In this document: positions 10,001 through 41,490 of the stretch, in pieces
How the letters are laid out: each line of letters opens with the position of its first letter
How positions within the stretch are numbered: position 1 is the stretch's first letter
DNA from: a virus
IMG/VR virus record: IMGVR_UViG_3300036985_006427
Coordinates: 32,001 to 96,000 of that record
Direction: 5' to 3' (one strand)
Length of the DNA: 64,000 nucleotides
The notes under the pieces: model-generated
Told to the model about the DNA's origin: nothing
The model's input: the letters and a program-made list of their open reading frames with translations, nothing else
Database searches by the model: none
Made by a program: the position numbers and the translations under genes

Positions 10001-13000
10001 TCAAAATCCTGCCCTCCTGATAATGGCACAAAGTTTGTTCTGCTTGCGTATGAAAACTCTTCACTTTGAGATGCAACGCTAATTGTAGCTGTGTTTGGAT
10101 GGAAATCTATTCCACTGAGACTTGTAGAGGTTTTGTAACTAGGATATGTGAAGTGATACCCATCATCACAACCGCTGATGCTGTCTGTTGCATAGTTTAT
10201 CAATTGTTTGTTGTCATTTTCTGTATATCTGCTCAACTTGTCTGACAAGTAATACTTGCCAAGTTTTGGTAAGTACATTGGCTTGCTTGTCATTCTCAGG
10301 CCACTGCAAAGATATGTAATATTATCAGATATTTCTTGAGCGGTACTATCTTTTACAGCACTGTAAGTTATAATTATCTTCTTGTTGCCAAAGTCAAGCC
10401 AGTCGTTTAGCGTCATTAAATCTTCACTCGAAGGTTTTCCAGACGGAAACGCCAACCACACAAAGTCTATGGAGCCGTTGACATATCTCATTTCACTGTT
10501 TTCTGTGAAAAATCCGCCATCAGGAAAAAATTCAACGTTTAATTTATTTGCTAAATTATGACCAGAGGCAGAATTTCCAGAAGAGTCATAAGCGTTCTTG
10601 AGAGATGTTCTTCCTGTAAAGCCATTTATCTGCAAACCCTTTGGGGCATACAAGCAATCTTTACGGATCATATTTATATAAAACTCTGTATTCTTATCTT
10701 TATTCAACGTGGCGTAACTAAGACCACGGCTAGCATCATCTTCACTCCACTGCGTAGCCAAGACATAAATGCGAGAATTATTAAATGATCCATCTGGTTT
10801 TCTTCCAGACTCCACAAGGGCTACTATCTGATCTGGGTAAACCGTTTCTGTGACATCAACAGCTTCAGATAAAATTTTACCAGCAGCTTGCATCAATCCG
10901 TCACGACCATTTTCAAGAGCAGGGTCGAACATATCTCCGTTATAATAAAATGAATTAAAGTTTCCACTAACAACCGATGGTCCATTTTCCATTATATGGA
11001 ACGCAAGTTCATTTATGTTGTTGGCAGCAAAAGATATCTTTTCTTCAAACTGCTTGTTGACTTTATAAACCTGTGGCTGAAAAGTATCCCATATCAATCC
11101 AGATGTAGCTGGATCGTACCAAGATGTTGGAGGCAAGTGTTCAGCGGTCGTCAAGACTGGCACGGGTTCTTCATTGCTTTTGTTGAACAACGATTGTGGA
11201 GGGCTATCACAATCGATAGTAAAGTTCTGGAACTGCAAAGGCCAGTTTTTATAATATGACACTACGCTACAAGTCTTTGGAGTTGTTTTTACGCACTGCT
11301 CTTTCCATTGGGCTCGTAAATCACCTACAATCCCTTTTAATGGAAATTCACATTTTGAATTTATAATTGGAGCAGGACCGTCACCGCAAGTAGCTCCTTC
11401 TGGGCAATTTAGATTTTCAAAAAATTCATCAAGATTATCTCTAGACAAATCTATACGAATATCGCCAACACCCTTGATATAATATTCTCCATGATGCTCA
11501 ATCGTTCTTCCAGTTGATCTATCTGGCAAGAAAGATTTAGTAGCATTGTATTTATTGCTAGAAACATCTTGTTGAGAAATGCATCCTTGAGCAGAATACT
11601 CAACATTACGCGCAGGATGTATTCTCATTCTGGAGCCTAATTTTTCCAGAATTTTGTTTACAATTTTATTTGAATCTTCATACAATCCATCTTCTTCCCA
11701 TACTGGGTCGTTGCCAACGATAACAAGATTTCTATCACCCAAAGACAACCAATCTTTGATGTTTTGAATAATTTCATCGCTTGCAGCATCTAGTTCTGGA
11801 GTGACAATAAACGCAAGACCAGCGTCTCTAGGAATTTCAATTTCAGAGAAATCAGTTCTTCTCCAAGATTTACCTTGATATCCAATCGTTCCGTTTGACC
11901 CAGAAGCGAAGATCAAAGGCCAATTAGAATTATCATAATAACCCAAAGCTCTTTCTTCAGGATGAGAAGATCTGTCAAGATTGCCAAACCTTCCAAACTC
12001 AACAACTTTGTTGTGAGGATAATATTTTCTGTTTTGGAATACTCTCACCGCTCCAGCATTTGTATATGAAGCCCAAGAGAGAATGTTATCACCCCAAACG
12101 TTAGCGTCTTCAAATTCGTTAAAGCAGTCTGTGGGTGCTCCGAACGCTACGGTTTCTCCGTCTTGGTCTACAGCACAGCTCCATCCGAGCCTCGACGTTG
12201 AAGCGAACGTAGATGGCAAGAACTGTCTGGTTCCTAAGTATTGAATATCATTGTGCCCATACTGATATGTCATTTTATAAGGGGTTGGCAGAGTTCCCCA
12301 GAAGTTGATATCATTTCTATATTCAAATCTTTCTGAGGATTGTATAAAGTCGTATGTAGACACTTTGGCTATAGCTTGTCCAGATTGAGACGCTATAGAA
12401 TCGTAATGACTGACAGCTTGCGGCTTGTTCGTGGAAACGCACCAGCTACGAATATTGTCGTAAACCTTCTGGGCTTCTTTTTCGTTTCGTTCAAAAATAT
12501 TACAAGATTTATCGTTCCACGGAGAACCGACTGCTACAACTTCTCCATTTTTACTTATAGAAACGGCGTGTCCAAACCTATCGTTGTATGTCTTGCTGTA
12601 TATCGAACCTAAACCATCCATACTGTCAAAGTTAAATTCTAACTTGTCGTTTGGAGACACAATGACTTGTATACAATTGAAAGTGTTTCTTTCTTTTTCA
12701 AATATATAAACTCTTCCGCCAGAGGCTGGTGGTACTTGAAATTCTGTTACAACAGACCCATGAGTAGAACCCCATTCTTGACCAACGCCACTTGCTATAA
12801 AGTTTCTGTTTAAAGTAGTGTTGGTGTATCCTGCGGACAATCTTCCGCTATCGAATGTATTTTCAAACAACTGCTTGCAAGTGGTATCCCATGTTTCAGA
12901 CTCTCCAGTGATCTTATTCAGATGACCACTTTGCGCAATGTTTTGGACAAGATCTTTGACTCCACTCGCATAAGAGTGAGCTAAATAAAACTTTTCAAAC

Positions 13001-16000
13001 TCATCATAGATGTTGATGACCACCCCATTGTTGCCGTATTGCAACGCTCCTTCAGTAGACCCTGTTTGTTCTTTGAAAAGACCAATGATAGCTGGTATTC
13101 CGCTATACACTGAGAATTCAGTAGAACCACTAGGAAACGCTTGGAAGAAAGCGGACTTTACTCCGCTGAGCATTTGATTGAACACAACTGGTCTTCCAGA
13201 AGCTATGAAATTTGCAGGAGATCCTAATCCACCAAGAACCCCTGAACCAGTATCAAGCAGTAATTCTAGGTCATCCAATCTAGGAATGTATTTGTGGACA
13301 AACCATGAAGACTCATCGGTTGGTATAACTGGATAATTTCTATTTGAATGAGTTAATTGTAGTACTATCAACTTAGGGTTGATTTGAGCGTACCATTCGT
13401 TTGGTCCGCTGTTCCAAGGTGCAGAGAAATATTTCCATAGTGTATTAAATTTTTGAGCTGTTGCAGCTACACTTTTCAGCTTTTCTTTTTCGTATTCAAA
13501 TAAGTCTGTAAATATGATTCCTGCCGTTGGAATGCCAGACACAGCAATGTCAGAGAAGCTTCTTGACCACTTGGCTCTTGGGGCACCCACAACCACAATC
13601 TCACGTTCACCACTAGAGCAAATATCTAAGGATTCTCCGAATTTTCTGCCTTCCTGTCCAATCTGCCATTTGTTTCCAGATATAGAGAATTGATCAAATC
13701 TAATTATATTTTCTTCTGTTCTTTGTATGTAATCTTTTCTGAAACCAGATGGTAACATCAACTGTTCAGCGTAAGACCATCCAGCCTTTTTGCCAGCTTG
13801 ATCAGAACCTCTTCTGTACAAGAATACAGATCCAGCTCCAGATACGTTCACTGTAGATTCGTCGTAAGGTGAATAATCTGAGATTGTAATGTTAGGAGCA
13901 GATATAGCCATCAAGTCATTGCTGACACGCACCTGTTGACCGTAATTATCATTTACGTTTCTGCCAGAAGCAGATATTAACTTCACACCTGAGAATACTA
14001 TGTTTTGATCACAATCTTCAGTGCAGCAACCGCTATTGTTTGGATACCAAGCTGGTCCACACATTCCGTATTCCCATTCTTCGAATGTTCTTGGAACAGG
14101 AATAGATTGATTAGAACCAGTTTTAATAACTAGCGTGGTCTTATAAGCAAGCGATGGCAATAGCTGATCAAACTTTCTTATTCCATAGTAATTTCCGCTA
14201 TATCCAAATCCACCTGCGAAATTAATTGCTCCAGAGTTTGTGTACGTATTCTTTGCTCTGAAGATGCCTCCATCATTGCATGTTTCTTGTCTCCACGTAA
14301 TGCCGTCAGTAACCAAAGCTTTATCTATAGCTTTGCTTGGACTGTCTCCTGTGCATGATCCATAACCTATTAAATCTACACCTCTGATTTCATTGTTTGC
14401 AGGCAGAAATGCAACATGATTGTCTGCAAGTTCTATTGGAGATCCATAGCTACTGCTGTTCCATACAGCCAAAGAAGATCCAAAATTAGAGCTATAGTTT
14501 GCTGTTACAAAATTTAGAGATCCAGTCAACAAGGATTTAACCAAAGGATTATGCACATACAAAGGCATAGATTGATTTATAATGTTTGGAGCGTTTATGT
14601 ACAAAGGCATAGAATGTGAGCGTCGTGTGGACACTCCTTGATTATGACCAACAATGGTCAATCCGATCACTCCACTGGCACTGCCTTTTTGTCTGTTCAA
14701 TTGCTGGTTATGTAAAAATAATGGCAATGAAGATAAAACGCCCACGTTTCCAGAAGAAGCGAATAGATTAAGATTTAATACTGGACCTTCTGGTTTACCT
14801 GCCAACTCTATATTGACCAGAGTCAATGGCATACCAAAGAAACTACCAACAGATGTATTTGGGTTTCCGTCATCTGATGTATCGAGCATACCTAAAACTT
14901 TAGGCATAGATAAAGACAAGCCGCTACTCAGCGATGTTGGTAATTCTCCGCTGATATTTAAATTAAAATAGCTGTATCCAGATTGAGGAGGTATAAATAG
15001 ATTCAATGAATTAGATTCAGTGAAAGCTCCACTTACATTCAAGAAAAATCCAGATGGATGATCTACTTCATTGAAGATATTATACGGTATAGGAACCTGA
15101 ACTATCAACGGTAGTATTCCACTGTTTTCTCTTGGGAAACCGCCAATGTTAAGATTGATTTGGCTAGAAGCCGGGAAAGCTCCACTAACATTCATATTGA
15201 ATGTGCCGGAAGAACCCAGTGCCAAAATATTAGCATCTACCATTCTCACATGAGAAGAGTGCATATCTATTCTAGATTCAAATGCTGGTCCAGAAGGATA
15301 AACCAGATCGTATTGAACGAACATTTGATTTACATCGTCTTTGAAATATCTTTCTGAAAAATCTTTTAACCTTGGTTCTTTTGGGAATACAGCCCAAGGC
15401 TCTGTTTCATCGATTAGATCTTCATAATCAAATGTAGATTCTAACTTAACAAAACAGCTAGACGGTTCGATGTAATGAATTTTTCTGTTTACCAATCCCC
15501 AATTCGGCTCTTCTGTTGTCCAATATGGGTCTTGTTTCTTTGTGTACAAGCTAACTATAAACTTTGGACCAGATGGAGCGATTGTTTCACAAGATGGCCA
15601 CTTTATTCCATCTCCAAATTTATGCTCAACAATAGTTTCTACAACGAGGGCTCGTTCAGAAAATTTATATCCAACTGGTATGCTCTTGGTTATTCTTCTG
15701 TTGACTGCGTAAAAATTATCCACAACGTCAGATAAATGAAATCTTAAAAAGTCATTTTCTATCTGAGTATGGTAAGCTACAGTGTTATCCACAGATGTTG
15801 GCAGCGTTATATTTGTCTTGTCTGAATATCCAATGCCATCGCTTTTCAAATTAAAGGAAATCAGATCACGACCTGTGCGTTTTGTCAAGAAGTCAAACGA
15901 AGCGTCAAATTGGCAATATTTAAAGTCACCTACGTGCCAATCATTGTGCGTATCTTCGTCAACGTTTTGCCATAATGTAAATCTATCGTTGGTGTGTGAT

Positions 16001-19000
16001 TCAGAAGGATTCCATAGTTTAACTCTTTGATTTGCTAAAAATACATCTGCACTAGTTTCTTTGAGTTGTAAATCTGGATCTGATTGGACTATTTTACAAC
16101 CAGACGCAAGACCAAACTCACTAACAAACATATTCATGCCAACACCAGAACCAGTAGAAAACCCTACTGTAACATCGCTGTCTCCGACATAGATATCAAA
16201 CGGAGTAGAAGTAGCACGCAATGTATTCCAAGGATAAGCAAATTCGTTGTCTGTATATAATTTTAATTCACTCAAATCCTTATCGTTATAAGTAAGAATA
16301 ACTGCAAGTGGATATTGATATTCTGAATAATGAGCAGTGTCAGTTATTTTAATGATATTTCCAGTTGTGCTCCGAGCTAAACCGCAGAGATAACCGTTTT
16401 CGTAAGATATAGCAAACTCTAATTGTCTTCCTCCATGAGCATTGTGGAGACCCCATTTAGACACAAGTACTCCGCTATTAAATAAATTATAACCAACACC
16501 GCTTACATTTACGTCTGGTGTAAATTTAATATAAGAAACAAATCCATCGGAAGTATCTAAAGAATGATTAAAATCAATATAAGAGTTTTGTCCGCTAATT
16601 CTTACTATGTTGTTAAAAGCATCTGAAATCTGACCGTATAGCTGATCACTTGTAAAATTAGCCGCTCCATTGCTTAAAGACGTCCAGTCGGTAGTTTGGT
16701 AAGAGGTACTATAACCCGGCAACTGATTGTTGAATATTGTAGGGTTAGTAAATCTCCAACCAATGTTTTTATATCTATATTGACCATTACCATAAGTTGT
16801 GTGTAAAACACCGCCATTTCCGGTGTTATTGTGTGGATTTATTGTATGACCATCATCATAATCAAAATCATAAAAACCAAAATTAAATGGAGAATCTAAC
16901 AATGGATTATAGAATGAAAAACCAAACATGTTGGGATGGAAATCCCCTTGTGTTAGACCTTCCATTCCTTTCCATCTTCGAGCGTAGTTGGTTCTTATTG
17001 TATTTGGTGAACCATAAGCATGGGGAATGTTTTGTATTCTAGATATTGGCCCATATCCAGATCCAGCGTTGAGTACGCTATCATAAGATTGCATACCAGA
17101 AGGATACAAAGCGGCTTCAGATCTTCCGTCTTGAGTTTTGCCAAACTTCTCTCCACCCTGAGTGTACAGATTTATAGCATTAGCAGGAGCATATCTCACG
17201 CACAATTCGGCGTATCCAATAGCTGCACCGCTTGGCAATGGGAATATATCAAGGTATACATTTTCTAAGAAAGAGCTAAGACTATAATCTCTAGACAACC
17301 CCAGCTTTACTTTATCGTCAAGTATAACCAAAGGTATTTCATAAAGTTGAAAACCCGTACTGTTAACAACTGGGTATTGAGACAATCTATAATGATCGTT
17401 TCCGCTTGATTCAAAGTAAGTGTCATTTTCAGACAATGAACCACCACCGATTGTTCTGTCTGAATCACCTCGGTAAAATCCAGACAGCACAGGGTAGTTG
17501 CCAATGTTAGAAACGAAAGTGTCATTCAAGAAAATTCCAGATGGATCTTGAATAAATCCGCCAGACGGAGGTGTTACAAACAATAAATCGTCGTTGCTGT
17601 ACCCTACAACGTCCAAGATATAATCTCGGCTACCAACCTGTTTCTTAGCAAGAACTTTGAGTGTTAGAGATTCAACGTTATAAAAACAAATATCTTCTTG
17701 AATATTTTCAATACGTTTTTCTACACTGAATGCTCCAGTTGGTTTCCACCATGTTGTGTTTGTCCCTTGATCAAATGAGAAGTTAAAATCACCATTTGTA
17801 ATTTCATCTACTTTGTTGTATCCGGTTTGAAACTTTAAAATCAACTTTCCAGAATTCGCTATGTTTCCACCGCTGGTTGATTGCAATTTGATGAATCTAT
17901 CGGCATTTTTAACATTCAATATATTTATTAATTCTTTAGAGCCACAAACGTCTTGATTTGTTGCTCCTATTGGATATCCAGCAGTTATCGTTGTGTCATC
18001 TGCCCATACATTGTTGTTGACAGAAGGATAAATGGTTGTATCGTACGTATTGATAGCTATGAACGTTGGATTGATGCTTCTCTCTAGCCTTCGTCCAATT
18101 TCTCTCACAGGTATGCGGAATGGTAAATAATTCTCTAACCTTGGACCATACCCGCCACTGTTGCAAATTTCTACTGCTGATATTCTGAATCCTCTGGTAG
18201 GATTTATAAATCTTGTTTCATTGCTTGATAAAGGTTGTCCATCAATCGCCAAGTAGCTGTTGCCATTGTTGCTAAGTATCTCTGGAATAATATAATTTTC
18301 TTCAAAACCATCATCGAAACCCTTGTTGAAGGGATCGTCTAATGAGACAGCTCTTACGCTAAAAGACAATTGATATCCACTCACCTTATGCATATGAGGA
18401 ATGGTTCGCTGCCAGTCGTATTTTTCATTTATAACATTTATTTGAGGAAGAGATGAATACGTAGTAAAGTTAGAGTATTCTTCTGTGGAATCGCCTCTCA
18501 TCTGAATGTCATTGTATTTAACTATCAAATTTCCAGATGGGTCAGATAATTTAATGTTATATAATGTATACAGGGGTGGAAGTTTAGACTCATAATTATA
18601 CAGAGGTGTTGCTACTCTTATTCTAAAAGAAGAGCGTTCAGGTCTGACATACATATCAGTAAGTTCGCACTTGTACTGAAAAAGACCCTCTGTATGAAAA
18701 GTGTTTGGTTCAATGTAGGAGTTTTTGTCATCAGACAATAAGTTGGAATCTCCACGATCTTTCAAGACGCCTTCATAAATACCTTCATCTATATTGGACC
18801 ATAAGTTTGTTGACTCTAAAGACGGTCCAGCAAAAGTTCCAAACCCACTGTCTATCGGCAGATCGTTTGATGGATACAGTTTGCCTTGACAGTAAAAGTC
18901 CCCAAAATCACCCGCTACCTTGTCTGTTATTGTGTTTATGATATTAGCTTCGCCGGTTATCACTTGTGACAATACATAGCTAGCCTTGATGCTGTTGAGA

Positions 19001-19569
19001 ATATCTGACGAACCTATGATTTCTGACACAAGGCTTATGTAAGAACTAAAAATAGTTGATATGTCAGCTACACCAACAATACTTGCTCCTCCAACAGACT
19101 TAGCGGTCACCATGTTCGGAGCGGTGGCGTTAGCGTATCCAAAAACACTTGGATCTACAGCAGGAGGATTGCTCAGCAAGCCAAGGTTTGGACCGTCATA
19201 AAAAAATAAAACTGATCCATTTTCGAATTTTTGGATCACATTGGATGAAATCTTGACAAACTGATTTGGAGAAACTTCATACGACAACTCTATATTCCAG
19301 CCTTCATCGATAAGATCTTTGTACTGACAGGTGTTTGCAGAACATCCAGATAGAGTGTATAATGGTCCACTTCCAGCCAATGAATTTTTATCGAAATAAA
19401 CAATTATTTGCTGTGGAGGCGCTGCTATTTTAGAAAACGTATTGAATGAGGCTGATAAAGCAGCTTCATTGAGTGTCATTGTAGCAAGAAGCTCACCTCC
19501 TCCGGGACAGGTGGCTGAGGTTCCTTTTATACAACAACATTCCAAACTCTTCAAGAACGGTTCTGACAT
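7093..19569 (-). CDS. Giant virion adhesin (4158 aa): LamG-like domain, seven FG-GAP repeats, vWA-like and GIFT/GATase-like inserts
   Basis: FG-GAP blades such as DRFGHAVSISKNGEVVAVGSP, DLFGYSVAIDNGKIIVGTP, DRFGFSVDIAYDMAVVGAP..NGAVY; LamG-like segment ~16130-16600 (FVSYIKF..VLVSKW..VILTYND..LKLYTD). Confidence 0.8.
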   Translation of the reverse strand: MSEPFLKSLECCCIKGTSATCPGGGELLATMTLNEAALSASFNTFSKIAAPPQQIIVYFDKNSLAGSGPLYTLSGCSANTCQYKDLIDEGWNIELSYEVSPNQFVKISSNVIQKFENGSVLFFYDGPNLGLLSNPPAVDPSVFGYANATAPNMVTAKSVGGASIVGVADISTIFSSYISLVSEIIGSSDILNSIKASYVLSQVITGEANIINTITDKVAGDFGDFYCQGKLYPSNDLPIDSGFGTFAGPSLESTNLWSNIDEGIYEGVLKDRGDSNLLSDDKNSYIEPNTFHTEGLFQYKCELTDMYVRPERSSFRIRVATPLYNYESKLPPLYTLYNIKLSDPSGNLIVKYNDIQMRGDSTEEYSNFTTYSSLPQINVINEKYDWQRTIPHMHKVSGYQLSFSVRAVSLDDPFNKGFDDGFEENYIIPEILSNNGNSYLAIDGQPLSSNETRFINPTRGFRISAVEICNSGGYGPRLENYLPFRIPVREIGRRLERSINPTFIAINTYDTTIYPSVNNNVWADDTTITAGYPIGATNQDVCGSKELINILNVKNADRFIKLQSTSGGNIANSGKLILKFQTGYNKVDEITNGDFNFSFDQGTNTTWWKPTGAFSVEKRIENIQEDICFYNVESLTLKVLAKKQVGSRDYILDVVGYSNDDLLFVTPPSGGFIQDPSGIFLNDTFVSNIGNYPVLSGFYRGDSDRTIGGGSLSENDTYFESSGNDHYRLSQYPVVNSTGFQLYEIPLVILDDKVKLGLSRDYSLSSFLENVYLDIFPLPSGAAIGYAELCVRYAPANAINLYTQGGEKFGKTQDGRSEAALYPSGMQSYDSVLNAGSGYGPISRIQNIPHAYGSPNTIRTNYARRWKGMEGLTQGDFHPNMFGFSFYNPLLDSPFNFGFYDFDYDDGHTINPHNNTGNGGVLHTTYGNGQYRYKNIGWRFTNPTIFNNQLPGYSTSYQTTDWTSLSNGAANFTSDQLYGQISDAFNNIVRISGQNSYIDFNHSLDTSDGFVSYIKFTPDVNVSGVGYNLFNSGVLVSKWGLHNAHGGRQLEFAISYENGYLCGLARSTTGNIIKITDTAHYSEYQYPLAVILTYNDKDLSELKLYTDNEFAYPWNTLRATSTPFDIYVGDSDVTVGFSTGSGVGMNMFVSEFGLASGCKIVQSDPDLQLKETSADVFLANQRVKLWNPSESHTNDRFTLWQNVDEDTHNDWHVGDFKYCQFDASFDFLTKRTGRDLISFNLKSDGIGYSDKTNITLPTSVDNTVAYHTQIENDFLRFHLSDVVDNFYAVNRRITKSIPVGYKFSERALVVETIVEHKFGDGIKWPSCETIAPSGPKFIVSLYTKKQDPYWTTEEPNWGLVNRKIHYIEPSSCFVKLESTFDYEDLIDETEPWAVFPKEPRLKDFSERYFKDDVNQMFVQYDLVYPSGPAFESRIDMHSSHVRMVDANILALGSSGTFNMNVSGAFPASSQINLNIGGFPRENSGILPLIVQVPIPYNIFNEVDHPSGFFLNVSGAFTESNSLNLFIPPQSGYSYFNLNISGELPTSLSSGLSLSMPKVLGMLDTSDDGNPNTSVGSFFGMPLTLVNIELAGKPEGPVLNLNLFASSGNVGVLSSLPLFLHNQQLNRQKGSASGVIGLTIVGHNQGVSTRRSHSMPLYINAPNIINQSMPLYVHNPLVKSLLTGSLNFVTANYSSNFGSSLAVWNSSSYGSPIELADNHVAFLPANNEIRGVDLIGYGSCTGDSPSKAIDKALVTDGITWRQETCNDGGIFRAKNTYTNSGAINFAGGFGYSGNYYGIRKFDQLLPSLAYKTTLVIKTGSNQSIPVPRTFEEWEYGMCGPAWYPNNSGCCTEDCDQNIVFSGVKLISASGRNVNDNYGQQVRVSNDLMAISAPNITISDYSPYDESTVNVSGAGSVFLYRRGSDQAGKKAGWSYAEQLMLPSGFRKDYIQRTEENIIRFDQFSISGNKWQIGQEGRKFGESLDICSSGEREIVVVGAPRAKWSRSFSDIAVSGIPTAGIIFTDLFEYEKEKLKSVAATAQKFNTLWKYFSAPWNSGPNEWYAQINPKLIVLQLTHSNRNYPVIPTDESSWFVHKYIPRLDDLELLLDTGSGVLGGLGSPANFIASGRPVVFNQMLSGVKSAFFQAFPSGSTEFSVYSGIPAIIGLFKEQTGSTEGALQYGNNGVVINIYDEFEKFYLAHSYASGVKDLVQNIAQSGHLNKITGESETWDTTCKQLFENTFDSGRLSAGYTNTTLNRNFIASGVGQEWGSTHGSVVTEFQVPPASGGRVYIFEKERNTFNCIQVIVSPNDKLEFNFDSMDGLGSIYSKTYNDRFGHAVSISKNGEVVAVGSPWNDKSCNIFERNEKEAQKVYDNIRSWCVSTNKPQAVSHYDSIASQSGQAIAKVSTYDFIQSSERFEYRNDINFWGTLPTPYKMTYQYGHNDIQYLGTRQFLPSTFASTSRLGWSCAVDQDGETVAFGAPTDCFNEFEDANVWGDNILSWASYTNAGAVRVFQNRKYYPHNKVVEFGRFGNLDRSSHPEERALGYYDNSNWPLIFASGSNGTIGYQGKSWRRTDFSEIEIPRDAGLAFIVTPELDAASDEIIQNIKDWLSLGDRNLVIVGNDPVWEEDGLYEDSNKIVNKILEKLGSRMRIHPARNVEYSAQGCISQQDVSSNKYNATKSFLPDRSTGRTIEHHGEYYIKGVGDIRIDLSRDNLDEFFENLNCPEGATCGDGPAPIINSKCEFPLKGIVGDLRAQWKEQCVKTTPKTCSVVSYYKNWPLQFQNFTIDCDSPPQSLFNKSNEEPVPVLTTAEHLPPTSWYDPATSGLIWDTFQPQVYKVNKQFEEKISFAANNINELAFHIMENGPSVVSGNFNSFYYNGDMFDPALENGRDGLMQAAGKILSEAVDVTETVYPDQIVALVESGRKPDGSFNNSRIYVLATQWSEDDASRGLSYATLNKDKNTEFYINMIRKDCLYAPKGLQINGFTGRTSLKNAYDSSGNSASGHNLANKLNVEFFPDGGFFTENSEMRYVNGSIDFVWLAFPSGKPSSEDLMTLNDWLDFGNKKIIITYSAVKDSTAQEISDNITYLCSGLRMTSKPMYLPKLGKYYLSDKLSRYTENDNKQLINYATDSISGCDDGYHFTYPSYKTSTSLSGIDFHPNTATISVASQSEEFSYASRTNFVPLSGGQDFERILSFLPEIKQTYKVYGAKNTWQINGAGAVTFPILPGSGYRVWINWVSESPDEKFKICANHSGNLIFDTPVGLPSFACGSVGELTKTTTYIPQETIFEFRTESNSNIDEFGITFQTSKWSSFIDVKELEGISLPPKTPRMLSISGALLPIITEINAITTSGLINDGLPVQFNFRYAVNPAASGVVPGVSRPVKHKSSIYCDENNFTTDECISASESWAEELIEDGPVIVAEEFENFSSFQNGKRRSKIILIADSTLLQGQCPHYRSTTITGNQSFVRNLYPPSPNDTGETINIGNGAGRLQSGGVYDTALIKEGRNWELSQKLRAPERGSPAKYAAVSGQAIGATLIPSRLWGGNGVAGNLNNYSDNEDTYDPTTLSRPPELKTSEEMEQRSKSFFNDEVITKYGMYPRFSGDFLDIVTYNGGIYTDYDILLGLDKNSNRSFIVDAGIGGGLNELMKIANADYLDYDLFNSGCPGDLFGYSVAIDNGKIIVGTPYNAFHSEGAISGVSGIVQWHEIKNDATRSGIRIGADGGAGAAFIFEKTNNGKNVIEEFLPWEFKQKIKPNSINVGIYDFSPTPSQKLTSLRGPHQINDSSFISEYARRGDRFGFSVDIAYDMAVVGAPNHSFETLHHHIYSGSTAFQRKSFDAKFDIPKHSFYDLADSGIRVNTFGNNSGTMTLNNGAVYNYRNEMVNFNERTQRWIFAEKMLAVGYKSRVQTALTTGILAASGSDNDNFGASVCIDRPLRGDSDYTLIAGSPNHDWPTSGDHPTKGLNNAGAAYTFDCVLRQQIPSIQNSGGWIDAHVFGNKQESGSTDRVGLRVYQNSSGDSLEYVVSGIVFSNKNGDIFLEASGFDPSTKGFVAHRPYIDNIKFELFPGTEINNSFNLITSGRPVAMSGDMNLSLLGPDRANVYNTLGLYNFGVLGIASGENPSGLSLFISAPSGQSSESLNLSLTSTQTTNALNLRVRGY

Positions 19570-19573
19570 TTTG

Positions 19574-22500
19574 TTAACCTAATACAGAGTTAGTTTTCTT
19601 TAAATCACCGGATGTGTTTGTCTTAAACTGCGATATTTGTTTTCCTACTTCGGTCAACAATTCTTGCTTTATGTCTTCTTTCATTGTTTCTAAGAAAGAA
19701 GCTCCATTAAAGTTAACATTGATATTCGTTGTATCTAAAGCTACTTGGAATTTACTTCCTATAAGCTTGTCTACGGTCGCAGCGAAATTATTGAATATAG
19801 TTGTTAACTGTGGTATCGCTGCACTGAATGCGCTGCCTACACCATCTACCGCTCCTCCAACGTTATAATATCGAGCTTTACCTCCACCGCTCATTGCTCC
19901 GGGAGCACTCGCTCCACCACCTTTGTTCATAGCTTGTAGTATCTGTAAATTATTGCCACGTTGAACTGACGATCTGTTGACCACAAATTCTCCCGGAGTC
20001 AACATAGCCGGAACGGTATCTGTTCCACGCGGAACGAACATTCCTCTGTTCGCATAAACTGGACCTCCTCTGTAAAGACCCGGAGGAGCAGGTGCCGCAG
20101 CAGGTGCTTGAGCTGGAGCAGCAGCAGCGCCACCTAAAGCTTGGTTTAATTGTTTGCCAATGTCTCCAATTGTAAGTTCTTGAGCATAAACAATTGCTTG
20201 TTTAGTATTAACTTCTGCTCTTTCAAATTCGGCTGCTTGTTGACCAAGTTGACCAAGTGTTGTCGCTAATTCTCTACCTTCAGCTTTCTTAGCTTGCTCT
20301 TCGGTTGTTGTGCCAGATAGTACACCCGTTGATTGAACTCCGAAACGTTGCAGCGTTAAATCTTCTGCTCTTCTTTTTTTATCATCCGATAAGCCTTGTC
20401 CCTCAAGGGTTTTGAAACCAGCTCCCAACGCTGAACCACTAAACAAACTAGTCAAAGCAGAGCTTCCGCTCGCTAGTGCAGCACCAGCTCCAGCAGCCGC
20501 TTGTTTTTCTAAAAACCCTTCTATGTCACCGCTTATGAGTGATTCGAGAGAATCCTTTTCTGCTTGATTTTTTCTTTGAATTAATTGAAGTTCTTCTTTT
20601 CTAGCTTCAATTTCTTGTTTTGTTTGTGAGATTAAATCTTGTTGTAACGCTTTCAGTCTTTCTCTAGTGTCTTCTTCCGCTCCAGCGCCACCAGAAAAAG
20701 CTCTTTCTCCAGACACTGCGCCAGCTCTAGCTCTTTCTTCTAGTTGTAAGAATTGATTGCTAATATCAGCGGATACGCTTTGAATATCACCAGCGTTGCC
20801 AGTTTGAAGACCACGCACACCAACAGCCTCAGCGCCAACATTGAAGCTTGCAACTCTAGCTTGTTGTTTTTCGCCTGCTGTTAAAGCTTTACCACCAAAC
20901 TCTTCAAAGATCTTGCCAGCCTCTAGTTGTAATTCTATAGCCCTTCTTTGTGCTGCTACATATTCTTGTTCAGATGCTATACGTTGTTGAATTCCCTTGA
21001 TCAGTAATTGCTCTGCCTCTGAGCGTTTTTGAAGAACACCAAGAACTTCTTTGTTGAATGCATCACTAGTTTTTTGCAATGCTTCTCTTAATGGACCAAA
21101 ATTTCCAGCTTGAATTTCAGCAAGATCTTCTCCGTTAAACTTAGAGCTTGCTTCGTCAAGACCAGCATTAATTCTTGTTGCCACTTCAGGATCTAATCCG
21201 GCGGTCAATTCTTCACTGAGTATCCTTGATATTTCTTGTGGAGTTGCTCCCGCCGGTCCTTTTTCCGTTAATTTCTTTTGTATGTTTGCAAAAGAATCTG
21301 AATCTTTATTTAGTCTAGAAAAGGCAGTGTTGAAACCTTTAGCTGCACCACTCGCGTTACCTATGGCAGCCTCACTAGCTCCAGCTTCACGCAAAGTACC
21401 TTCTAGTGTTGCAATGGCTCCATCTAATTCCTTTGCTGACAAAGTGCCAGCAGCGCTAGTCAATGCGGTCTGTAAGATATCTAATGAATCACCAAACTTA
21501 TCTCCAACCTGATCTATAGTTAATAATTTCGATAATTTTTTGTTTGTAGCATCCAATGAATCAGAAAGTGTTCCAAGGCCAAAGTTAGTAGCTTTGATAA
21601 GAGCTAATTGTCTTATGGCTTGCTCTTTAGCGGCTTTCAAAGACTGTTTACCAGCTTCTTCTCTTTGTTTTTCAAATCCTCTAATTTTAATTTCTTGTTG
21701 TTCAAGATCTGAAAATACTCTGGCTCCCGGTCCTTGTGATTGCTGCACATTTGCGTCAATTCTAGCTTGCTCTGCTGGAGAAAATTGTGAAGTAGTAGCA
21801 GCTTTAAATGCTGAATTATCGGTAACAGTCCTTTCAGCTTCGTCCGCCGTTGCTCCTCTCATGATCTGATCCGCAAGAACATTACCAAACATTGGTAATT
21901 GTTCCATAAATGCAGTAGTAGCTTTTTCTTGGTCTGGAATTTGTTCTTTCAAAGCTTCGGCTCTTTTTTTGTCGTTAGACTTATCCAATTGCCCCTGAAG
22001 CATACTGCCAACCAAAGCACCCAAAGGACCAGCAATAGCTAATCCAGCCATAGTTGAGGCTCCTTCCAGAGCCCAGAATGAATTATTAACATCTTCAATT
22101 CTTGAATTGCTCAAAGCTATGGATTGTGCAAGAACACCAAACTCATTGTTTAAATTACCAGTTAAATTGCCTTTCGTAAATTCATCGGTTAAAGTGCTAG
22201 ATCCAGACTCTACACGTTGCATAGCCATAGCGACATCGTTGGCGTTTTTAGAAGCTTCGTTTTCCTGTTTCTTTCTGGCGGCAGCTAATCTAGCTTCTTG
22301 TTTAACTGTATCTGTACTTGGACCTAATCCAAAGAATGCTAAAGTTTTTCTAAAGGCATTTAATGGTCCTTCTAACAGCCCAAACGCATCAGCTAATTTA
22401 AGACCAATCGCAACAATACCAATCGTAACACCAACTAGCACACCTAATGGTCCACTGACAGCAATTAAAACACCAGCTAAAATTCCAAGAGCTATAGTTA

Positions 22501-25500
22501 CTTTATTTACTATGTTAGAATTTGCAGACGCTACAGCCGTTTCTCCAGCTTTTGCGACATTGCCTTGCTCAATAGCCTTTTTAGCTTTTTCATGCACGCC
22601 TGTTAAAGAATCAACAGCTTTAGTTAAAGCAAAAGCAGCTATACCGCCAGCAGCAAACCCAGCAATCAATGGACCAAGTACTGGACCAGAACGGGCAAGT
22701 ACTTTACCTAGCTGTGGACCTAATTTAGTTAGTTGGGAGCCGAATTTACCTAATCGACCCGGAAATTTTTCTAATATCTCTCCTGCTTTTTTAACTCCGC
22801 TTTCCAAACCACTGTTCTTGGCTCCAACTTGTAAGCCAGCACCTACTCTGGAAGATTTACCACGGAAGAATTGACCAATGTCTTTCAGTCCTGCTGCGTT
22901 TAATTTTAGACCAAAAGCTTGAGCAGCAGCAGCAGCACCAAGTAATCCTGCAAGAAGTGTTTGCAAACCACCCACTAACCCATCGGCAAATTTTGCAAGA
23001 GCGCTGCTATTTTCATCAATTTGTGGTTTTAAATAACCTAAGCCGCCAATAACAGCAGACACCCCAACAGATAACTTCAGAAGGTAATCATCATCTTTTT
23101 TTCGTGTTTTACCTGTTGGTGGACTAGTTGGAGATGTTCCTGTGCCAGTTCCAGCGTTTGGACTAGTCGGACTAACTGGAGGACAAGGACACACCGGAGG
23201 AACTACTTGAGGAGTTGCTGCGGGTAGACTAGTTGGATACCCTAGCCCTCCCGGTTTTGGATTGGTAGTTGCTGCGGGTGGAATAATGACTGGAGGTTTT
23301 ACCGTAGTCATTGCCGGGTTTCGTCTTTGCACTGAACTTGGCTTCTTGCCTAAGGCTAATTTAGCTGCATTTTCTTGAACTCCAGCAGCCTTGATAGCTT
23401 GAGCGTTTGTCTGTAATTCTGCTGTGACCTTATCTCTAATTTCCTTTCCTCTTTTTAAAGATTCTTCTTCTCGCTGTAAAGCAGCGTTTGTATCTTTTAG
23501 ATTTTTATCCATCACTGTGGATTCTTTCAGAAGATCATTCAGCTTTTTCGCATGCTCATCTTGAGCCTTCCTGTGGGTTCGTAAAGCCTTTTTATATTCG
23601 TTTAAATCTTTCTCGACCGATTCTTTGCTATCACCAAAATCCTTGAAACCATTTGGACCAGATTTTTTTCTAAGAGCAAGTTTACGTTCTTCAATTTTTG
23701 CTTTAATTTCTGCTTCATTTAATGGTTTCGAGGAACCTCTAACATCAACAGTAGTTTTAAGATCTTTTACTGAAGTTAGATCGGCAAATTCCTTTGTTTT
23801 TAAATCTATAGCGGATTCTTGTTCAGCCTTCTTTGCTTTTAAAGAGCCGACAGTAATCTCTTTTTTGGATATGCTTGATGAGATACCAACCTGTTGTCTT
23901 TGTAAATTACCCCTATCTTTTTGCAAATTTTGTCTAGTTACTTTTGCTGCATCTCTCATAGCTTCAAGCTCTGCTTTAGTAGGAGACACTGGAAGAACTG
24001 CCGGAGTAGTAGCCACTGGAGGTGCTGCAGTAACTGGCGGAGTAGTAGCCACTGGAAGAACTGCCGGAGTAGTAGCCACTGGAGGTGCTGCAGTAACTGG
24101 CGGAGTAGTAGCCACTGGAGGAACTGCCGGAGTAGTATCCACTGGAGGTGCTGCAGTAACTGGCGGAGTAGTAGCCACTGGAGGTGCTGGTACAGCAGCT
24201 TCTGGTGCAGGAGGTTCTGGCTGTTTAGGAGTTGGAGTTCCTAAAAATTCAGCAGCTTTCTTTTCTTTTACGTTAGCCTCTTGTGTGAGTTTAGCGTTTT
24301 TCTCTAAGTTAGACTGAAGCTTATCTCTAATTCTAATCGAACTATTTAAACTATCCTGTTCTCGCTTTAAAGAATCTGCTGTCTTTTTTAACGAGTCTTT
24401 GAGATCTGTTTCTTGTTCTTCAAGCTTCTTGGTTTGTAAATGAGCAGAAGCCATATCTTTAGCCAAAGATTGAAGATTACCTTTTAATAGTTCTAAATCC
24501 TTTGTTACAAAATCTCTACCTCCAAGGAGTTCAAGCTCACCAGAATCTCCGTTAAGAGCAGATTCACGTTTCTTAATTTCACTTTTTATATTGACAGAGG
24601 TTTGTACGTCGGACTTTCTTTTCCTCTTATTCACATAAATGTCATCACTCACTGACGTCAGAGTAGATATTTGTTCATTCCTCTGAGCATCTAAAGCGTT
24701 TATATTACCTTGTTTTTCAGTTATGTCACCAGAAACATGAGCCTGACCGCTTTTTAACCCATCTCGTTTCTTTTCTAATTCTGCTCTAGTTTCGATTGCC
24801 GCTTTGTGAATAGCTTCAACGTCTGATGTTAAATCCTCTGCAGATAATCCAGCAAAACCTTCACCACTCTTTTTTAACTCCTCGGCCATCGCAATCATAG
24901 CTAATTCAGCGTCACCAGTACTTGCTAATATAGATTGTGCAGCAGTATTAGAGCCTGCAAACAAATTAGCAAAAACTTCTCTGTTTTGACCAGCATAGTT
25001 TTCAATAAAATTTAAACTAGCACCAGTCTTTTTCATAGACGTTACAAGAGCTTGAGTTATTTTATCTGTTATTTGCTTTTGAAAAGTACCTTCTTTTTCG
25101 CTAGCATAACCAGAACCTCCTCCACCAATCTTGTCTCCAGCAGCAACATCCACTAAATGACCAACCTCATGATCTATTGTTCCTGTTGTTGCTTTATCCT
25201 TGGCTGTCTTAACTTGAAATACACGCTCATTTTTGTCGTTTCCACCAGCTCTAAACTGACCGTAGGATGAACCACCATCAATATTGTCAACAATCCCACT
25301 TTTGTACTCTTCAGTACCTTGACCCTTTTCAATTCCGTCTAATATTGCTTTCTTTATATCTTCTGGTAGATGATTCGTTACTTTTTTGAATGCCTTACCG
25401 AAATCTTCGGCGGTCTTTACTTTATCTTTTCCACCAACCCGTGCTCGCACGATATCTTTAGCAGCTTCGTCAGTCGCTAGACCTCCAACTTCAAAACGAT

Positions 25501-27952
25501 TCCAACCGCCTCCAACCGAACCGCCCTTGGCGAATTTAGCAACACCCTGCTTGTTCATTCGGTTAAGGTTTCCATAACCGATACGCTGTGCAGAGCTTTT
25601 GTTCACAACAAACTCACCGGGAGTCAGCAAAGCTGGAACCGTGTCTGTTCCAGCAGAACCTCCTTCAGCGAATTTAGCAACACGCGAACCAGATGTGGAA
25701 CCTCCAGACGCTTTCTTTGAAGTATTTGTCGCTTTAGGTTGAATTTGTATATTTTTGAAAGTAGATTCATATAAATCTGAAGCTAATTGATTTTTTATCT
25801 TTTTGTGAAATTCTGCTGGTGCAATATTACTGTTACTTGAGCCAGCAGACACTTTAGCGTCAATATACTTGATATTTTTCAATGCCTTGAATAAATTCCC
25901 AGAGTTTATACCGCCGGTAAAGTCAAATGGTCTATTTTCTTCTTTAGCTTCAACAGCAATTGGCTGACCATTGAAAGCATCAACAACATCTTCAAATAAA
26001 TTACCTTTTTGAGCTTGAGCTAACTTATATTGCGGAGAAAATCTAACTTCATCCCCTTTTAATTTAACGCCAGCGAAGTTTCCAAATTTATTTACTACAG
26101 ATTTTATTAAAACTTTAGATTCTTCGTTTACGATATCATCGAAATTAATCTTTTGCTCATATCCAATACCTTCTGCTAATGTAGAATATGTTTTTTGTTC
26201 AAATTGAAGTTGTTTTCGTGCTATATTTTTTATGTCGTCGGTGGACATATTTCCAGAACTGCCGTATATGTCTTCGATTGATAATGATCTTAGTCCACCA
26301 AATCCAGTTCTTGTCTTTATAATATCATCAATAGATACTATAGCTTTTCCAACTTTTGGTTCGAGTTCTGGATTTATTATATCTGGAACTGCAATTCCGA
26401 CAGAACTTTCTTGAGCTATTCCTCCAGTAGCATATCTATGCTCATTCATCGCCGCCAATTTATCAGCACCAATTTTATTGACGCTGCTCTTGCGGATTAC
26501 GAATTCTCCGGGAGTGAGCATAGCCGGAACGGTGTCTTGATTTCCAACACCCGGAACAGAACCTCCTCGTGCAAAACCTAATATTCGTCCACCATCATTT
26601 TTACCCAACGTTCCCAATCCACGAATAGCAGCTCCAGCGCCAGAGGCGAAAGAACCTAGGCCCTTAGCGAATTTAAATGCAGCCATAGCAGCAATAAGAG
26701 GAACAAGCGGTTTAATAGCATCAGCGACTTTGATTAACGCACTAGCAACTTCTAAAGCTGTACGAGCAAAAAGCTGAAAAGATGTGCTTTCGGCAATACT
26801 ACGAACTAAAGCTAAAAATTCTTCTTTGACTTTAGTGATTTGAACCGCTAAGGCTTGCTGTGCAGTAGCGGCATCCTTAGTCAATGAACCACTACCGGAT
26901 TGCGCGACATTGAGAGCATTTTGAGCTACAGAAAACTGCTGTAGTAAAGGAATGACTTTACCAATTTGTCTAAAACCACCGAGTTCTTCAGCTACTCTAA
27001 TAAATTTAATATCACCCTCTTCTAATCCAGATAATGCTTGTGCTAATCGTTTAGAAGCTTCGAATGGTCCAACAAATTTACCCTCCAAATCCAATAGTTC
27101 AACGCCATATTGACGTAAGAACTCAATTGTCTGGGGTCTTTGAATACGTGTAAAGATCGTTCTCAAGCCAGTGGCAATACTTTCAGCACTTTCACGAGTT
27201 GTGGCTCGAACCGATGTAAATAGAGCTAATAGTTCTTCTAAACTACCGCCAGAAGCTTTAAAAACACCACCAAATCTGCGAACAGCACTGATTAAGTCTT
27301 CAGCTTCAACGGCAAACGCTCCAGCAACAGCGTTAACAGAGCCAAGCTGTGCTTCTAAAGCACCAACACCTTGTCCAAACTGAGCTAAAATAGCAACAGC
27401 ACCCTCGGCAGTTTCTGTGATGCTATCGAAGTTTGGAGCAAGAGTTGTTTTAGCAAGAGCCTCAAGGGCCACTTTTAAGTCGTCTGCACCAATACCAGCT
27501 TGTGCTAATATAGTTGCTGTACTTAATAAGTCTTTACTAGAAGTGCCAAGGCCGACAGATAGTCTAGTTATTGTGTCTGTTAGGTCTCTTAATTCACCTA
27601 TTGACTTACCTGTAACTTGAGAAACTTTAATGACTTCCCTTTGGAAAGCGATAGATTCATCTATTGCGCCAGCTAAAGAATTTGTAAACAAACTGACTGC
27701 ACGACTTGCAATCGTAAAAGCTGCAAATCTTTTTATAGCCAAACCAAAAGATCTACCCATAGCATCAGCGGCAGAAGAAGCTCTCTGTGTTGCCGCTGTT
27801 AATTGGTTTATCTGTTTGGTGGCAGATCCAGCGGCTTTGATAGACACTGGAATGTTAACGCCCTGAAGTTGTTGATTTATTTGCTGTACAACTTGAGAGG
27901 CGTTGTTTGGAGCTTGCAATTGAATTTGTGCAGTGAGTACAAATTTAGCCAT
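19574..27952 (-). CDS. Tape measure protein (2792 aa) with internal cargo-like domains
   Basis: N-terminal TP901-type TMP core (LAQAG..ALAKT..ESAESIATGLRTIFTRI), Ala/Gly-rich hydrophobic segments, coiled coils, three DTVPAxLTPGEFV motifs; follows tail tube and chaperones. Confidence 0.93.
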   Translation of the reverse strand: MAKFVLTAQIQLQAPNNASQVVQQINQQLQGVNIPVSIKAAGSATKQINQLTAATQRASSAADAMGRSFGLAIKRFAAFTIASRAVSLFTNSLAGAIDESIAFQREVIKVSQVTGKSIGELRDLTDTITRLSVGLGTSSKDLLSTATILAQAGIGADDLKVALEALAKTTLAPNFDSITETAEGAVAILAQFGQGVGALEAQLGSVNAVAGAFAVEAEDLISAVRRFGGVFKASGGSLEELLALFTSVRATTRESAESIATGLRTIFTRIQRPQTIEFLRQYGVELLDLEGKFVGPFEASKRLAQALSGLEEGDIKFIRVAEELGGFRQIGKVIPLLQQFSVAQNALNVAQSGSGSLTKDAATAQQALAVQITKVKEEFLALVRSIAESTSFQLFARTALEVASALIKVADAIKPLVPLIAAMAAFKFAKGLGSFASGAGAAIRGLGTLGKNDGGRILGFARGGSVPGVGNQDTVPAMLTPGEFVIRKSSVNKIGADKLAAMNEHRYATGGIAQESSVGIAVPDIINPELEPKVGKAIVSIDDIIKTRTGFGGLRSLSIEDIYGSSGNMSTDDIKNIARKQLQFEQKTYSTLAEGIGYEQKINFDDIVNEESKVLIKSVVNKFGNFAGVKLKGDEVRFSPQYKLAQAQKGNLFEDVVDAFNGQPIAVEAKEENRPFDFTGGINSGNLFKALKNIKYIDAKVSAGSSNSNIAPAEFHKKIKNQLASDLYESTFKNIQIQPKATNTSKKASGGSTSGSRVAKFAEGGSAGTDTVPALLTPGEFVVNKSSAQRIGYGNLNRMNKQGVAKFAKGGSVGGGWNRFEVGGLATDEAAKDIVRARVGGKDKVKTAEDFGKAFKKVTNHLPEDIKKAILDGIEKGQGTEEYKSGIVDNIDGGSSYGQFRAGGNDKNERVFQVKTAKDKATTGTIDHEVGHLVDVAAGDKIGGGGSGYASEKEGTFQKQITDKITQALVTSMKKTGASLNFIENYAGQNREVFANLFAGSNTAAQSILASTGDAELAMIAMAEELKKSGEGFAGLSAEDLTSDVEAIHKAAIETRAELEKKRDGLKSGQAHVSGDITEKQGNINALDAQRNEQISTLTSVSDDIYVNKRKRKSDVQTSVNIKSEIKKRESALNGDSGELELLGGRDFVTKDLELLKGNLQSLAKDMASAHLQTKKLEEQETDLKDSLKKTADSLKREQDSLNSSIRIRDKLQSNLEKNAKLTQEANVKEKKAAEFLGTPTPKQPEPPAPEAAVPAPPVATTPPVTAAPPVDTTPAVPPVATTPPVTAAPPVATTPAVLPVATTPPVTAAPPVATTPAVLPVSPTKAELEAMRDAAKVTRQNLQKDRGNLQRQQVGISSSISKKEITVGSLKAKKAEQESAIDLKTKEFADLTSVKDLKTTVDVRGSSKPLNEAEIKAKIEERKLALRKKSGPNGFKDFGDSKESVEKDLNEYKKALRTHRKAQDEHAKKLNDLLKESTVMDKNLKDTNAALQREEESLKRGKEIRDKVTAELQTNAQAIKAAGVQENAAKLALGKKPSSVQRRNPAMTTVKPPVIIPPAATTNPKPGGLGYPTSLPAATPQVVPPVCPCPPVSPTSPNAGTGTGTSPTSPPTGKTRKKDDDYLLKLSVGVSAVIGGLGYLKPQIDENSSALAKFADGLVGGLQTLLAGLLGAAAAAQAFGLKLNAAGLKDIGQFFRGKSSRVGAGLQVGAKNSGLESGVKKAGEILEKFPGRLGKFGSQLTKLGPQLGKVLARSGPVLGPLIAGFAAGGIAAFALTKAVDSLTGVHEKAKKAIEQGNVAKAGETAVASANSNIVNKVTIALGILAGVLIAVSGPLGVLVGVTIGIVAIGLKLADAFGLLEGPLNAFRKTLAFFGLGPSTDTVKQEARLAAARKKQENEASKNANDVAMAMQRVESGSSTLTDEFTKGNLTGNLNNEFGVLAQSIALSNSRIEDVNNSFWALEGASTMAGLAIAGPLGALVGSMLQGQLDKSNDKKRAEALKEQIPDQEKATTAFMEQLPMFGNVLADQIMRGATADEAERTVTDNSAFKAATTSQFSPAEQARIDANVQQSQGPGARVFSDLEQQEIKIRGFEKQREEAGKQSLKAAKEQAIRQLALIKATNFGLGTLSDSLDATNKKLSKLLTIDQVGDKFGDSLDILQTALTSAAGTLSAKELDGAIATLEGTLREAGASEAAIGNASGAAKGFNTAFSRLNKDSDSFANIQKKLTEKGPAGATPQEISRILSEELTAGLDPEVATRINAGLDEASSKFNGEDLAEIQAGNFGPLREALQKTSDAFNKEVLGVLQKRSEAEQLLIKGIQQRIASEQEYVAAQRRAIELQLEAGKIFEEFGGKALTAGEKQQARVASFNVGAEAVGVRGLQTGNAGDIQSVSADISNQFLQLEERARAGAVSGERAFSGGAGAEEDTRERLKALQQDLISQTKQEIEARKEELQLIQRKNQAEKDSLESLISGDIEGFLEKQAAAGAGAALASGSSALTSLFSGSALGAGFKTLEGQGLSDDKKRRAEDLTLQRFGVQSTGVLSGTTTEEQAKKAEGRELATTLGQLGQQAAEFERAEVNTKQAIVYAQELTIGDIGKQLNQALGGAAAAPAQAPAAAPAPPGLYRGGPVYANRGMFVPRGTDTVPAMLTPGEFVVNRSSVQRGNNLQILQAMNKGGGASAPGAMSGGGKARYYNVGGAVDGVGSAFSAAIPQLTTIFNNFAATVDKLIGSKFQVALDTTNINVNFNGASFLETMKEDIKQELLTEVGKQISQFKTNTSGDLKKTNSVLG
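23988..24188. repeat. 63-bp tandem repeat, ~3.2 copies, encoding (P/L)PVATTPPVTAAPPVATTPAV inside the tape measure gene
   Basis: Units start at 23988, 24051, 24114 and 24177 and are nearly identical. Confidence 0.95.
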
Positions 27953-40872: not shown

Positions 40873-41490
40873 TTATAGATAATTGTGTGTGATGTAATCA
40901 AGGTGATGTTTTCCGTGAAACCCAAAAGAGCTATCGATACTTCCGACCAACTCAGTAGAAAAGGTCTTAGCTACTTCTTCTGTGGCAAATTTACAATCTG
41001 CGTCCTCGTATACTGACCTATTGTGGCAGCAGATGAACACGTCCTCATTAAAGAAGCCATAATTCGACTTCCAAGGAATATCTTTCTCCTTCGCGAGCTT
41101 AAGCAGCTTTTTGCTCCTCAATGAGAAGCCACCGTTGCCAACTCGAATAAGAGTGTTATCTGGCGTTCTGTAAGAAATTGGATCATTGGGGATCGGCCAT
41201 ATCGCACCAATGTAATCGTAGTTCAAAAAATCATCACGCCATAGGGAAGGATTAATGATAAAGCCATCATCTTGTATGATCAGAGCATGAGAAGTATGTA
41301 TGTATTCTGCTAAGTCATAGACTATGAAACGATTATATTCTTCATAAGTTCTATTCTCATCTAAGAATATTGCTGAGTCAAAACTGCACAACTCATTCAT
41401 CTTGTCAAAGATGACTCTAGCTTTAACCTGATTCACTCCGGCTACACAGACTAATGAAGCCGGAATCTTGATTTTTTGTGCTGTTTTCAT
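40873..41490 (-). CDS. DUF5672-like GT-A glycosyltransferase
   Basis: ALIIQDDG..YDYIGAIW..VGNGGFSLRSK..NEDVFIC..SFGFHG motifs. Confidence 0.8.
   Translation of the reverse strand: MKTAQKIKIPASLVCVAGVNQVKARVIFDKMNELCSFDSAIFLDENRTYEEYNRFIVYDLAEYIHTSHALIIQDDGFIINPSLWRDDFLNYDYIGAIWPIPNDPISYRTPDNTLIRVGNGGFSLRSKKLLKLAKEKDIPWKSNYGFFNEDVFICCHNRSVYEDADCKFATEEVAKTFSTELVGSIDSSFGFHGKHHLDYITHNYL

Follow-up and report, generated by a model that had tools for sequence, protein, structure and literature searches.

Does a giant tape measure protein carry enzymes that are meant to be released from it? The question is raised by a gene in a 64,000-nucleotide stretch of virus DNA (the window: positions 32,001 to 96,000 of IMG/VR record IMGVR_UViG_3300036985_006427, a 110-kb virus contig that is ~66% complete), whose 2792-amino-acid (aa) product, a tape measure protein (TMP), contains three copies of a DTVPA(M/L)LTPGEFV peptide with di-glycine boxes on both sides. 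The original prediction, made from the letters of the window, had read these cassettes as processing or recognition signals that delimit and release injected effectors, and perhaps also as recombination points for swapping such cargo. We found the cassette to be a TMP junction module of ancient origin that lacks annotation; its lambda homologue is the stretch of the TMP, gpH, next to the region where that protein is cut. It flanks the inserted globular modules and provides joints at which exchange occurs. Of the original reading, the conserved modules, the exchange joints, a globular domain in the first enclosed segment (module A), a zincin motif in the segment after cassette 2 (module B) and the precedents for a nearby cut in lambda and T5 all held up; no GG-specific protease was found in the 110-kb record, and module B is not a general processing enzyme.

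The open reading frame (ORF) is, as judged from its sequence matches, a phage tail TMP: it aligns with PhageMin_Tail (PF10145; aa 128-312, E 2.4e-22) in Pfam, with TIGR01760 (aa 90-425, E 1.3e-23) in NCBIfam, and with PHROG families 4211, 28 and 167, all of which are tape measure families. It also has the general character of such proteins, being very long and largely helical, with hydrophobic segments and a place in the tail gene block. Coordinates of its features are collected in Table 1.

On translation of the ORF, the three cores lie exactly where they had been reported, and all ten of the listed di-glycine motifs are present (KNDGG, FARGG and YATGG; KASGG, FAEGG, FAKGG and FEVGG; LYRGG, AMSGG and YNVGG, for cassettes 1, 2 and 3, respectively). 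Nearly half of the GG dipeptides of the TMP (15 of 34) cluster in regions near the cores that make up 10% of the sequence (binomial p 3e-7); the protein as a whole is Gly- and Ala-rich. The 39-nucleotide (nt) cores are just 79-87% identical as DNA, while the peptide is nearly invariant and the differences are synonymous, which argues that the copies are old and held by selection at the protein level. A profile built from an alignment of 576 copies, taken from library matches, describes a conserved module of ~55-65 aa whose consensus begins with K-F-A-S-G-G and, after a brief spacer, continues with G-T-D-T-V-P-A-M-L-T-P-G-E-F-V-I-N-K, a helix that ends in L-x-A-M-N-K, and finally Y-A-K-G-G. The two flanks of cassette 2 duplicate each other because both VAKFA-x-GGS boxes around its core are encoded by a direct repeat (D9; 35 nt, 83% identical, at 25511-25545 and 25649-25683). 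Cassette 3 ends 104 aa before the C terminus, inside the ~60-170 aa looked for in a terminal copy.

On its own, the cassette is not covered by any Pfam or NCBIfam model, nor by a PHROG with a functional name. A literature search for a PGEFV motif in tape measures found nothing, and one for TMP autoproteolysis or a TMP polyprotein found nothing relevant. We rejected a kinship with the GDSMxPTLxxGD hairpin of LexA and signal peptidases (S24/S26): the cassette is far too short, and an Asp, not kept even in lambda, occupies the position of the nucleophile. Prediction of a three-copy complex of cassette 1 gave a score of 0.02, which speaks neither for nor against self-association.

The cassette occurs well beyond this virus. 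Its profile matches lambda gpH at aa 732-788 (E 1.8e-8), the TMPs of mycobacteriophage JakeO (two copies), Gordonia phage Hortense (three copies) and a Casadabanvirus (Pseudomonas phage PA1/KOR/2010), and the virion "lysozyme" gp213 of cyanomyovirus S-SCSM1. The last of these argues that the module is not limited to siphophage TMPs; gp213 (950 aa; locus L003, 3264-6116) is encoded in a baseplate-hub gene cluster and carries the cassette ~50 aa before a glucosaminidase domain. In the Hortense TMP, likewise, an SLT domain abuts a cassette. When cassette 1 alone was compared with PDB sequences by phmmer, it found the TMP chains of Douge (gp16, two copies), JBD30 and lambda; the whole protein matched nothing in the PDB, so that these chains emerge only with the isolated cassette as query. 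By tblastn, the cassette is present in 505 phage records, nearly always inside annotated TMPs. An exhaustive library search with aa 486-1060 yielded 2873 proteins at E ≤1e-3, the best 150 of which (248-7872 aa long, mostly at least 2000 aa) we surveyed together with this TMP. The number of cassettes in these 151 proteins ranges from 1 to 10. The median start of the first is aa 461, and the median distance from the end of the last to the C terminus is 120 aa. Boxes of the form aromatic/aliphatic-A/S-x-GG occur at 2.04 per 100 aa beside the cores and at 0.085 elsewhere, a concentration which indicates that the di-glycine flanks belong to the module. From profile and survey alike, the cassettes emerge as real conserved modules that bound non-ruler segments, as had been proposed.

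Direct evidence of exchange came from comparing this gene at the DNA level with three IMG/VR relatives, L008, L009 and L010 (Table 1). Similarity to L009 and L010 stops at aa 510, and similarity to all three resumes at aa 760; the edges of the replaced block thus fall in the YATGG flank of cassette 1 (aa 507-511) and the FAEGG flank of cassette 2 (aa 761-765). What the relatives have in its place is a longer, very divergent version of module A. The cassettes therefore serve as recombination joints.

Table 1. Features of the tape measure gene in the window and DNA identity of its segments to three relatives
Feature	Window position	Strand	TMP residues	Details
TMP gene	19574-27952	(-)		single open frame, 2792 aa; PhageMin_Tail, TIGR01760 and PHROG matches
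Segment			1-510	94.3% DNA identity to L009 and L010; L008 starts at aa 264
Cassette 1	26408-26593	(-)	454-515	profile E 5e-25; core DTVPAMLTPGEFV at 26498-26536 (aa 473-485)
Cassette 1 flanks		(-)	460-464 and 507-511	FARGG and YATGG; aromatic-A-x-GG
Segment			511-759	no DNA similarity to L008, L009 or L010
Module A	25697-26407	(-)	516-752	globular domain of undescribed family; pLDDT >90, two models
Cassette 2	25493-25696	(-)	753-820	profile E 3.7e-28; core DTVPALLTPGEFV at 25607-25645 (aa 770-782)
Cassette 2 flanks		(-)	761-765 and 807-811	FAEGG and FAKGG; encoded by 35-nt direct repeat
Segment			760-1067	92-95% DNA identity to L008, L009 and L010
Module B, zincin-like domain	24818-25492	(-)	821 to ~1045	HEVGH at 25157-25171 (aa 928-932), then D935 and E992-x-F-A
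Segment	24278-24751	(-)	1068-1225	no DNA similarity
Segment			after 1225	81-86% DNA identity to L008 and L009
Hydrophobic stretches, probably membrane-inserting	22367-22981	(-)	1658-1684, 1756-1780 and 1812-1862	Kyte-Doolittle, 19-residue window ≥1.5, peak 2.36
Cassette 3, terminal copy	19889-20056	(-)	2633-2688	profile E 3.4e-21; core DTVPAMLTPGEFV at 19982-20020 (aa 2645-2657)
C-terminal tail, expected to dock in tail tip	19577-19888	(-)	2689-2792	position only

Module A had been called nuclease-like. It is indeed globular, with a predicted local distance difference test score (pLDDT) above 90 in two models, and the order of its conserved residues matches that of PD-(D/E)xK nucleases: E654 lies in a helix, D677 follows, and D698-x-K700 lies in a strand. 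E654 and D677 do not vary across the alignment, D698 is kept in at least 90% of sequences, most sequences have K700, and K718 is conserved. The confident model, however, matches no solved fold, nor any predicted viral one. Fold searches of both models gave only helical or chance matches: the best VIA hit (Z 4.4) involves a helix only, and the best Foldseek E values were 0.35-0.41 against the PDB and 0.06 against BFVD, with no nuclease among the listed matches. Searches with aa 516-752 gave no match in Pfam, NCBIfam, PHROG or PDB sequences and nothing usable in the ESM Atlas. "Nuclease-like" is thus best kept as a lead at the level of a motif rather than as a fold assignment. Searching 158 proteins with a profile of the module A core detected it in 65, and in 62 of these it has cassettes 1 and 2 on either side. 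Module A therefore keeps a fixed position in this TMP lineage and is a trait of the family rather than freely exchanged cargo.

Two proteins that seemed to present such modules free-standing, P0007 and P0115, proved to be contig-end fragments and hence are no evidence for split genes; P0007 (463 aa), which had looked like a cassette-module-cassette gene, ends in an adaptor-derived peptide (…SYTHLRAHET). With single modules as query, only four close loci were found.

Module B, which follows cassette 2, bears out the zinc peptidase proposed there in its motifs but not in a family match. Among 30 homologues, each of the HExxHxxD residues (H928, E929, H932 and D935) is 96% conserved, and a distal Glu, E992 of E-x-F-A, is 93% conserved. 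Its nearest named ESM Atlas neighbours are Wss1-like, Peptidase_M90 and ATLF proteins (scores 0.90-0.93 for the last two). Lethal-factor-like and MtfA gluzincins (ATLF and Peptidase_M90) share with module B both HExxH and a distal Glu in an E-x-F-A context; that box resembles one in lethal factor. Module B differs from these families in that seven of its members had no Pfam match at E ≤5, PF07737 and PF06167 included, and in that its structure model is poor: AlphaFold2 gave pLDDT <50 over most of aa 872-961. PDB sequences, NCBIfam and PHROG likewise held no significant match. In 29 of the 30 homologues, a cassette precedes the HExxH by 76-148 aa (median, 104), although the motif can be anywhere from position 600 to position 3321 of the protein; this constant spacing despite a shifting position indicates that the cassette and module B move as a unit. 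Module B is found in ~30 of the 151 relatives, and we rejected it as a general processing protease because most cassette-bearing relatives do without it.

How these modules might relate to cutting depends on two precedents. In lambda, a ~14-kDa piece is cut off gpH at a glycine-rich region, giving gpH* and gpHC (PMC12617516); according to the same 2025 structural paper, the site and the catalyst of the lambda cut are not known, and the lambda and T5 TMPs are the only ones known to be cut. We computed that a cut of gpH at aa 710-735 would leave pieces of 77.7-79.9 and 14.6-12.3 kDa, which puts it directly before or at the start of the cassette. The likeness to our TMP is that gpH has a single cassette near its C terminus, flanked by FATGG and YATGG, just after the glycine-rich cutting region (aa 732-788 of 853; TIGR01541, which spans gpH aa 472-813, includes it). 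The differences are that lambda has one copy and no enzyme-like inserts, and that its copy is without the core Asp and Pro, whereas this TMP has three copies. In T5, cleavage of pb2 behind R1127 yields pb2* and the muralytic pb2C (PMC10038345); the residues that follow R1127 are AEGG. Here too an enzyme-like segment is set apart from the ruler body, and AEGG resembles aromatic-A-x-GG, though as a resemblance only; the piece released by T5 is C-terminal and acts on the cell wall, whereas modules A and B belong to the N-terminal third and cannot be recognised as enzymes of that kind. The Hortense SLT domain and the S-SCSM1 gp213 glucosaminidase likewise show folded enzyme domains in a tail-lumen protein beside the same cassette; in contrast to those, the modules here are unmatched in Pfam, NCBIfam, PHROG and the PDB, one being zinc-protease-like and the other of unknown fold. 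By analogy with the solved tails of Douge, JBD30, T5 and lambda, in which the final 33-42 residues are the sole visible part of the TMP, the segment after cassette 3 would be expected to dock in the tail tip. This TMP matched neither TIGR01541 nor Pfam Tape_meas_lam_C.

Our favoured explanation takes the cassette for a conserved junction module of TMPs that has been multiplied in this protein, with the layout aromatic-A-x-GG, spacer, D-T-V-P-A-x-L-T-P-G-E-F-V hairpin, short helix ending in MN, and second aromatic-A-x-GG. Copy 1 comes after the N-terminal ruler domain, copies 1 and 2 surround module A, and copy 2 precedes module B; copy 3, ~105 aa from the C terminus, has the same relative place as the cassette of lambda gpH. 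The conserved flanks act as joints for homologous recombination, through which related phages exchange the enclosed segment, and the glycine-flanked modules may be flexible connectors that carry folded non-ruler domains within a mostly helical ruler. The terminal copy may also mark the start of a gpHC-like end piece. Taken as a whole (junction module multiplied, exchange joint and connector), we consider this account probable. Whether the terminal end piece is cut off in tail maturation, as in lambda and T5, seems to us evenly balanced; we give lower odds, on the unlikely side, to cutting at the two internal copies, the step that would set modules A and B loose once the protein has been ejected.

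Several observations weigh against this explanation or against its tie to cutting. Evidence of cleavage in cassette-bearing phages is limited to lambda and is approximate there: the cut can be placed only to about ±20 residues, probably before the cassette and not at the GG motifs. The invariant core Asp is absent from the lambda copy, which speaks against a shared self-cutting residue, and T5 pb2 has no match to the cassette profile, its best region scoring -3.9 bits and lying elsewhere. None of the four solved tails named above shows an ordered cassette region. Prediction of the cassette fold is unstable between two models, one of which gives cassette 1 as a beta-hairpin and two short helices at pLDDT 73-87, the other reaching pLDDT 41-58. 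Finally, a second mosaic gap against L008 and L009 (aa 1068-1225), located in a predicted coiled-coil stretch, has no cassette at its edges; the cassettes are therefore not the sole joints, and the proposal that they are recombination points, borne out by replacement of aa 511-759 at the cassette flanks, does not extend to this gap.

Of the alternatives, the polyprotein originally proposed makes each cassette a cleavage or recognition signal at which a phage, host or self protease cuts after xxGG, freeing modules A and B as injected effectors. The lambda and T5 TMPs are cut beside the module or before an AEGG box, and T5 sets a precedent for freeing an enzyme carried on a TMP in such a way; the 24-fold enrichment of aromatic-A-x-GG flanks at cassettes and the fixed distance of module B from its cassette, as would be seen in a processed unit, also fit. 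However, no TMP is known to be cut at an internal cassette, the core Asp is not kept in lambda, and cuts at both GG boxes of a cassette would remove that cassette from the chain, which is without precedent. The proteases that such a scheme could use were sought with PF00770, PF02902, PF03412, PF14464 and PF00877: the 110-kb record, itself ~66% complete, yielded no JAB, NlpC/P60, C48, C5 or C39 peptidase, and the C5 search matched no control genome. None of the GG-specific virus-encoded proteases considered (adenain/C5, the C48 enzymes of African swine fever virus and Ulp-like type, C39 and JAB) is thus in evidence, and module B, missing from most cassette-bearing relatives, cannot be their common protease. 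The sole protease recognised in the record is of the ClpP family (60442-60951, minus strand; PF00574, E 1.5e-20) and is probably the prohead protease. We regard the polyprotein as rather unlikely.

We doubt to a similar degree a purely structural role, in which the cassette serves as a minor unit of folding or docking (for instance at the tail tip, in the tube lumen or for an assembly chaperone) or as a hinge, is never cut, and becomes a frequent recombination joint through its conservation alone. That the module is kept from lambda to actinophages regardless of its neighbours, and that the terminal copy stands at a fixed distance from the tip-docking C terminus, would both be accounted for, and conserved DNA suffices for module exchange. 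Such a role sits poorly, however, with a module that is not ordered in any of the four solved tails and with internal copies that are far from the tail tip, and it leaves the coincidence with the lambda cutting region unexplained. A chance or low-complexity repeat without function, which a Gly/Ala-rich protein might suggest, is refuted by profile E values down to 1e-28, by a distribution over 505 phage records and 2873 library proteins, and by a peptide that is conserved while its DNA has diverged synonymously.

An unannotated conserved module beside the lambda cut region offers mutagenesis and mass spectrometry in model phages something definite to aim at; it is also multiplied in thousands of giant TMPs. 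A bolder and decidedly speculative extension is that the module is the long-sought determinant of TMP maturation, directing a host- or self-catalysed cut beside itself in TMPs of the lambda type; in giant TMPs, its multiplication would then create a true polyprotein that releases non-muralytic enzymes into the host at DNA entry, in this case a zinc protease resembling lethal factor and an E/D/DxK domain with a novel fold. Were cutting directed by the module, giant TMPs would be effector-delivery polyproteins with enzymes beyond cell-wall hydrolases; even without cutting, the module would explain the shuffling of TMP inserts, which bears on host range and on evasion of tape-measure-sensing defences.

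Other parts of the TMP and its surroundings deserve brief mention. The middle of the protein contains a Pro/Thr/Ala/Val-rich tandem repeat (23978-24232, minus strand; aa ~1241-1320) with units such as PPVATTPPVTAA and a period of 63 nt at the DNA level, and a further Pro-rich stretch follows near aa 1590-1650; the repeat could be an extended spacer or a glycosylation target. The ORFs that neighbour the TMP gene are all on the same strand, with large tail-like ORFs downstream, and the neighbouring tail genes have almost no family matches. Directly downstream, a 4158-aa ORF (7093-19569, minus strand), whose sole family match is to FG-GAP repeats (E 6e-22), probably encodes a giant tail-tip or adhesin protein. 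The structural gene block also contains a Gp80-like fibre protein domain (PF23140; 43020-43460, minus strand) and a DUF5672 protein (40873-41490, minus strand).

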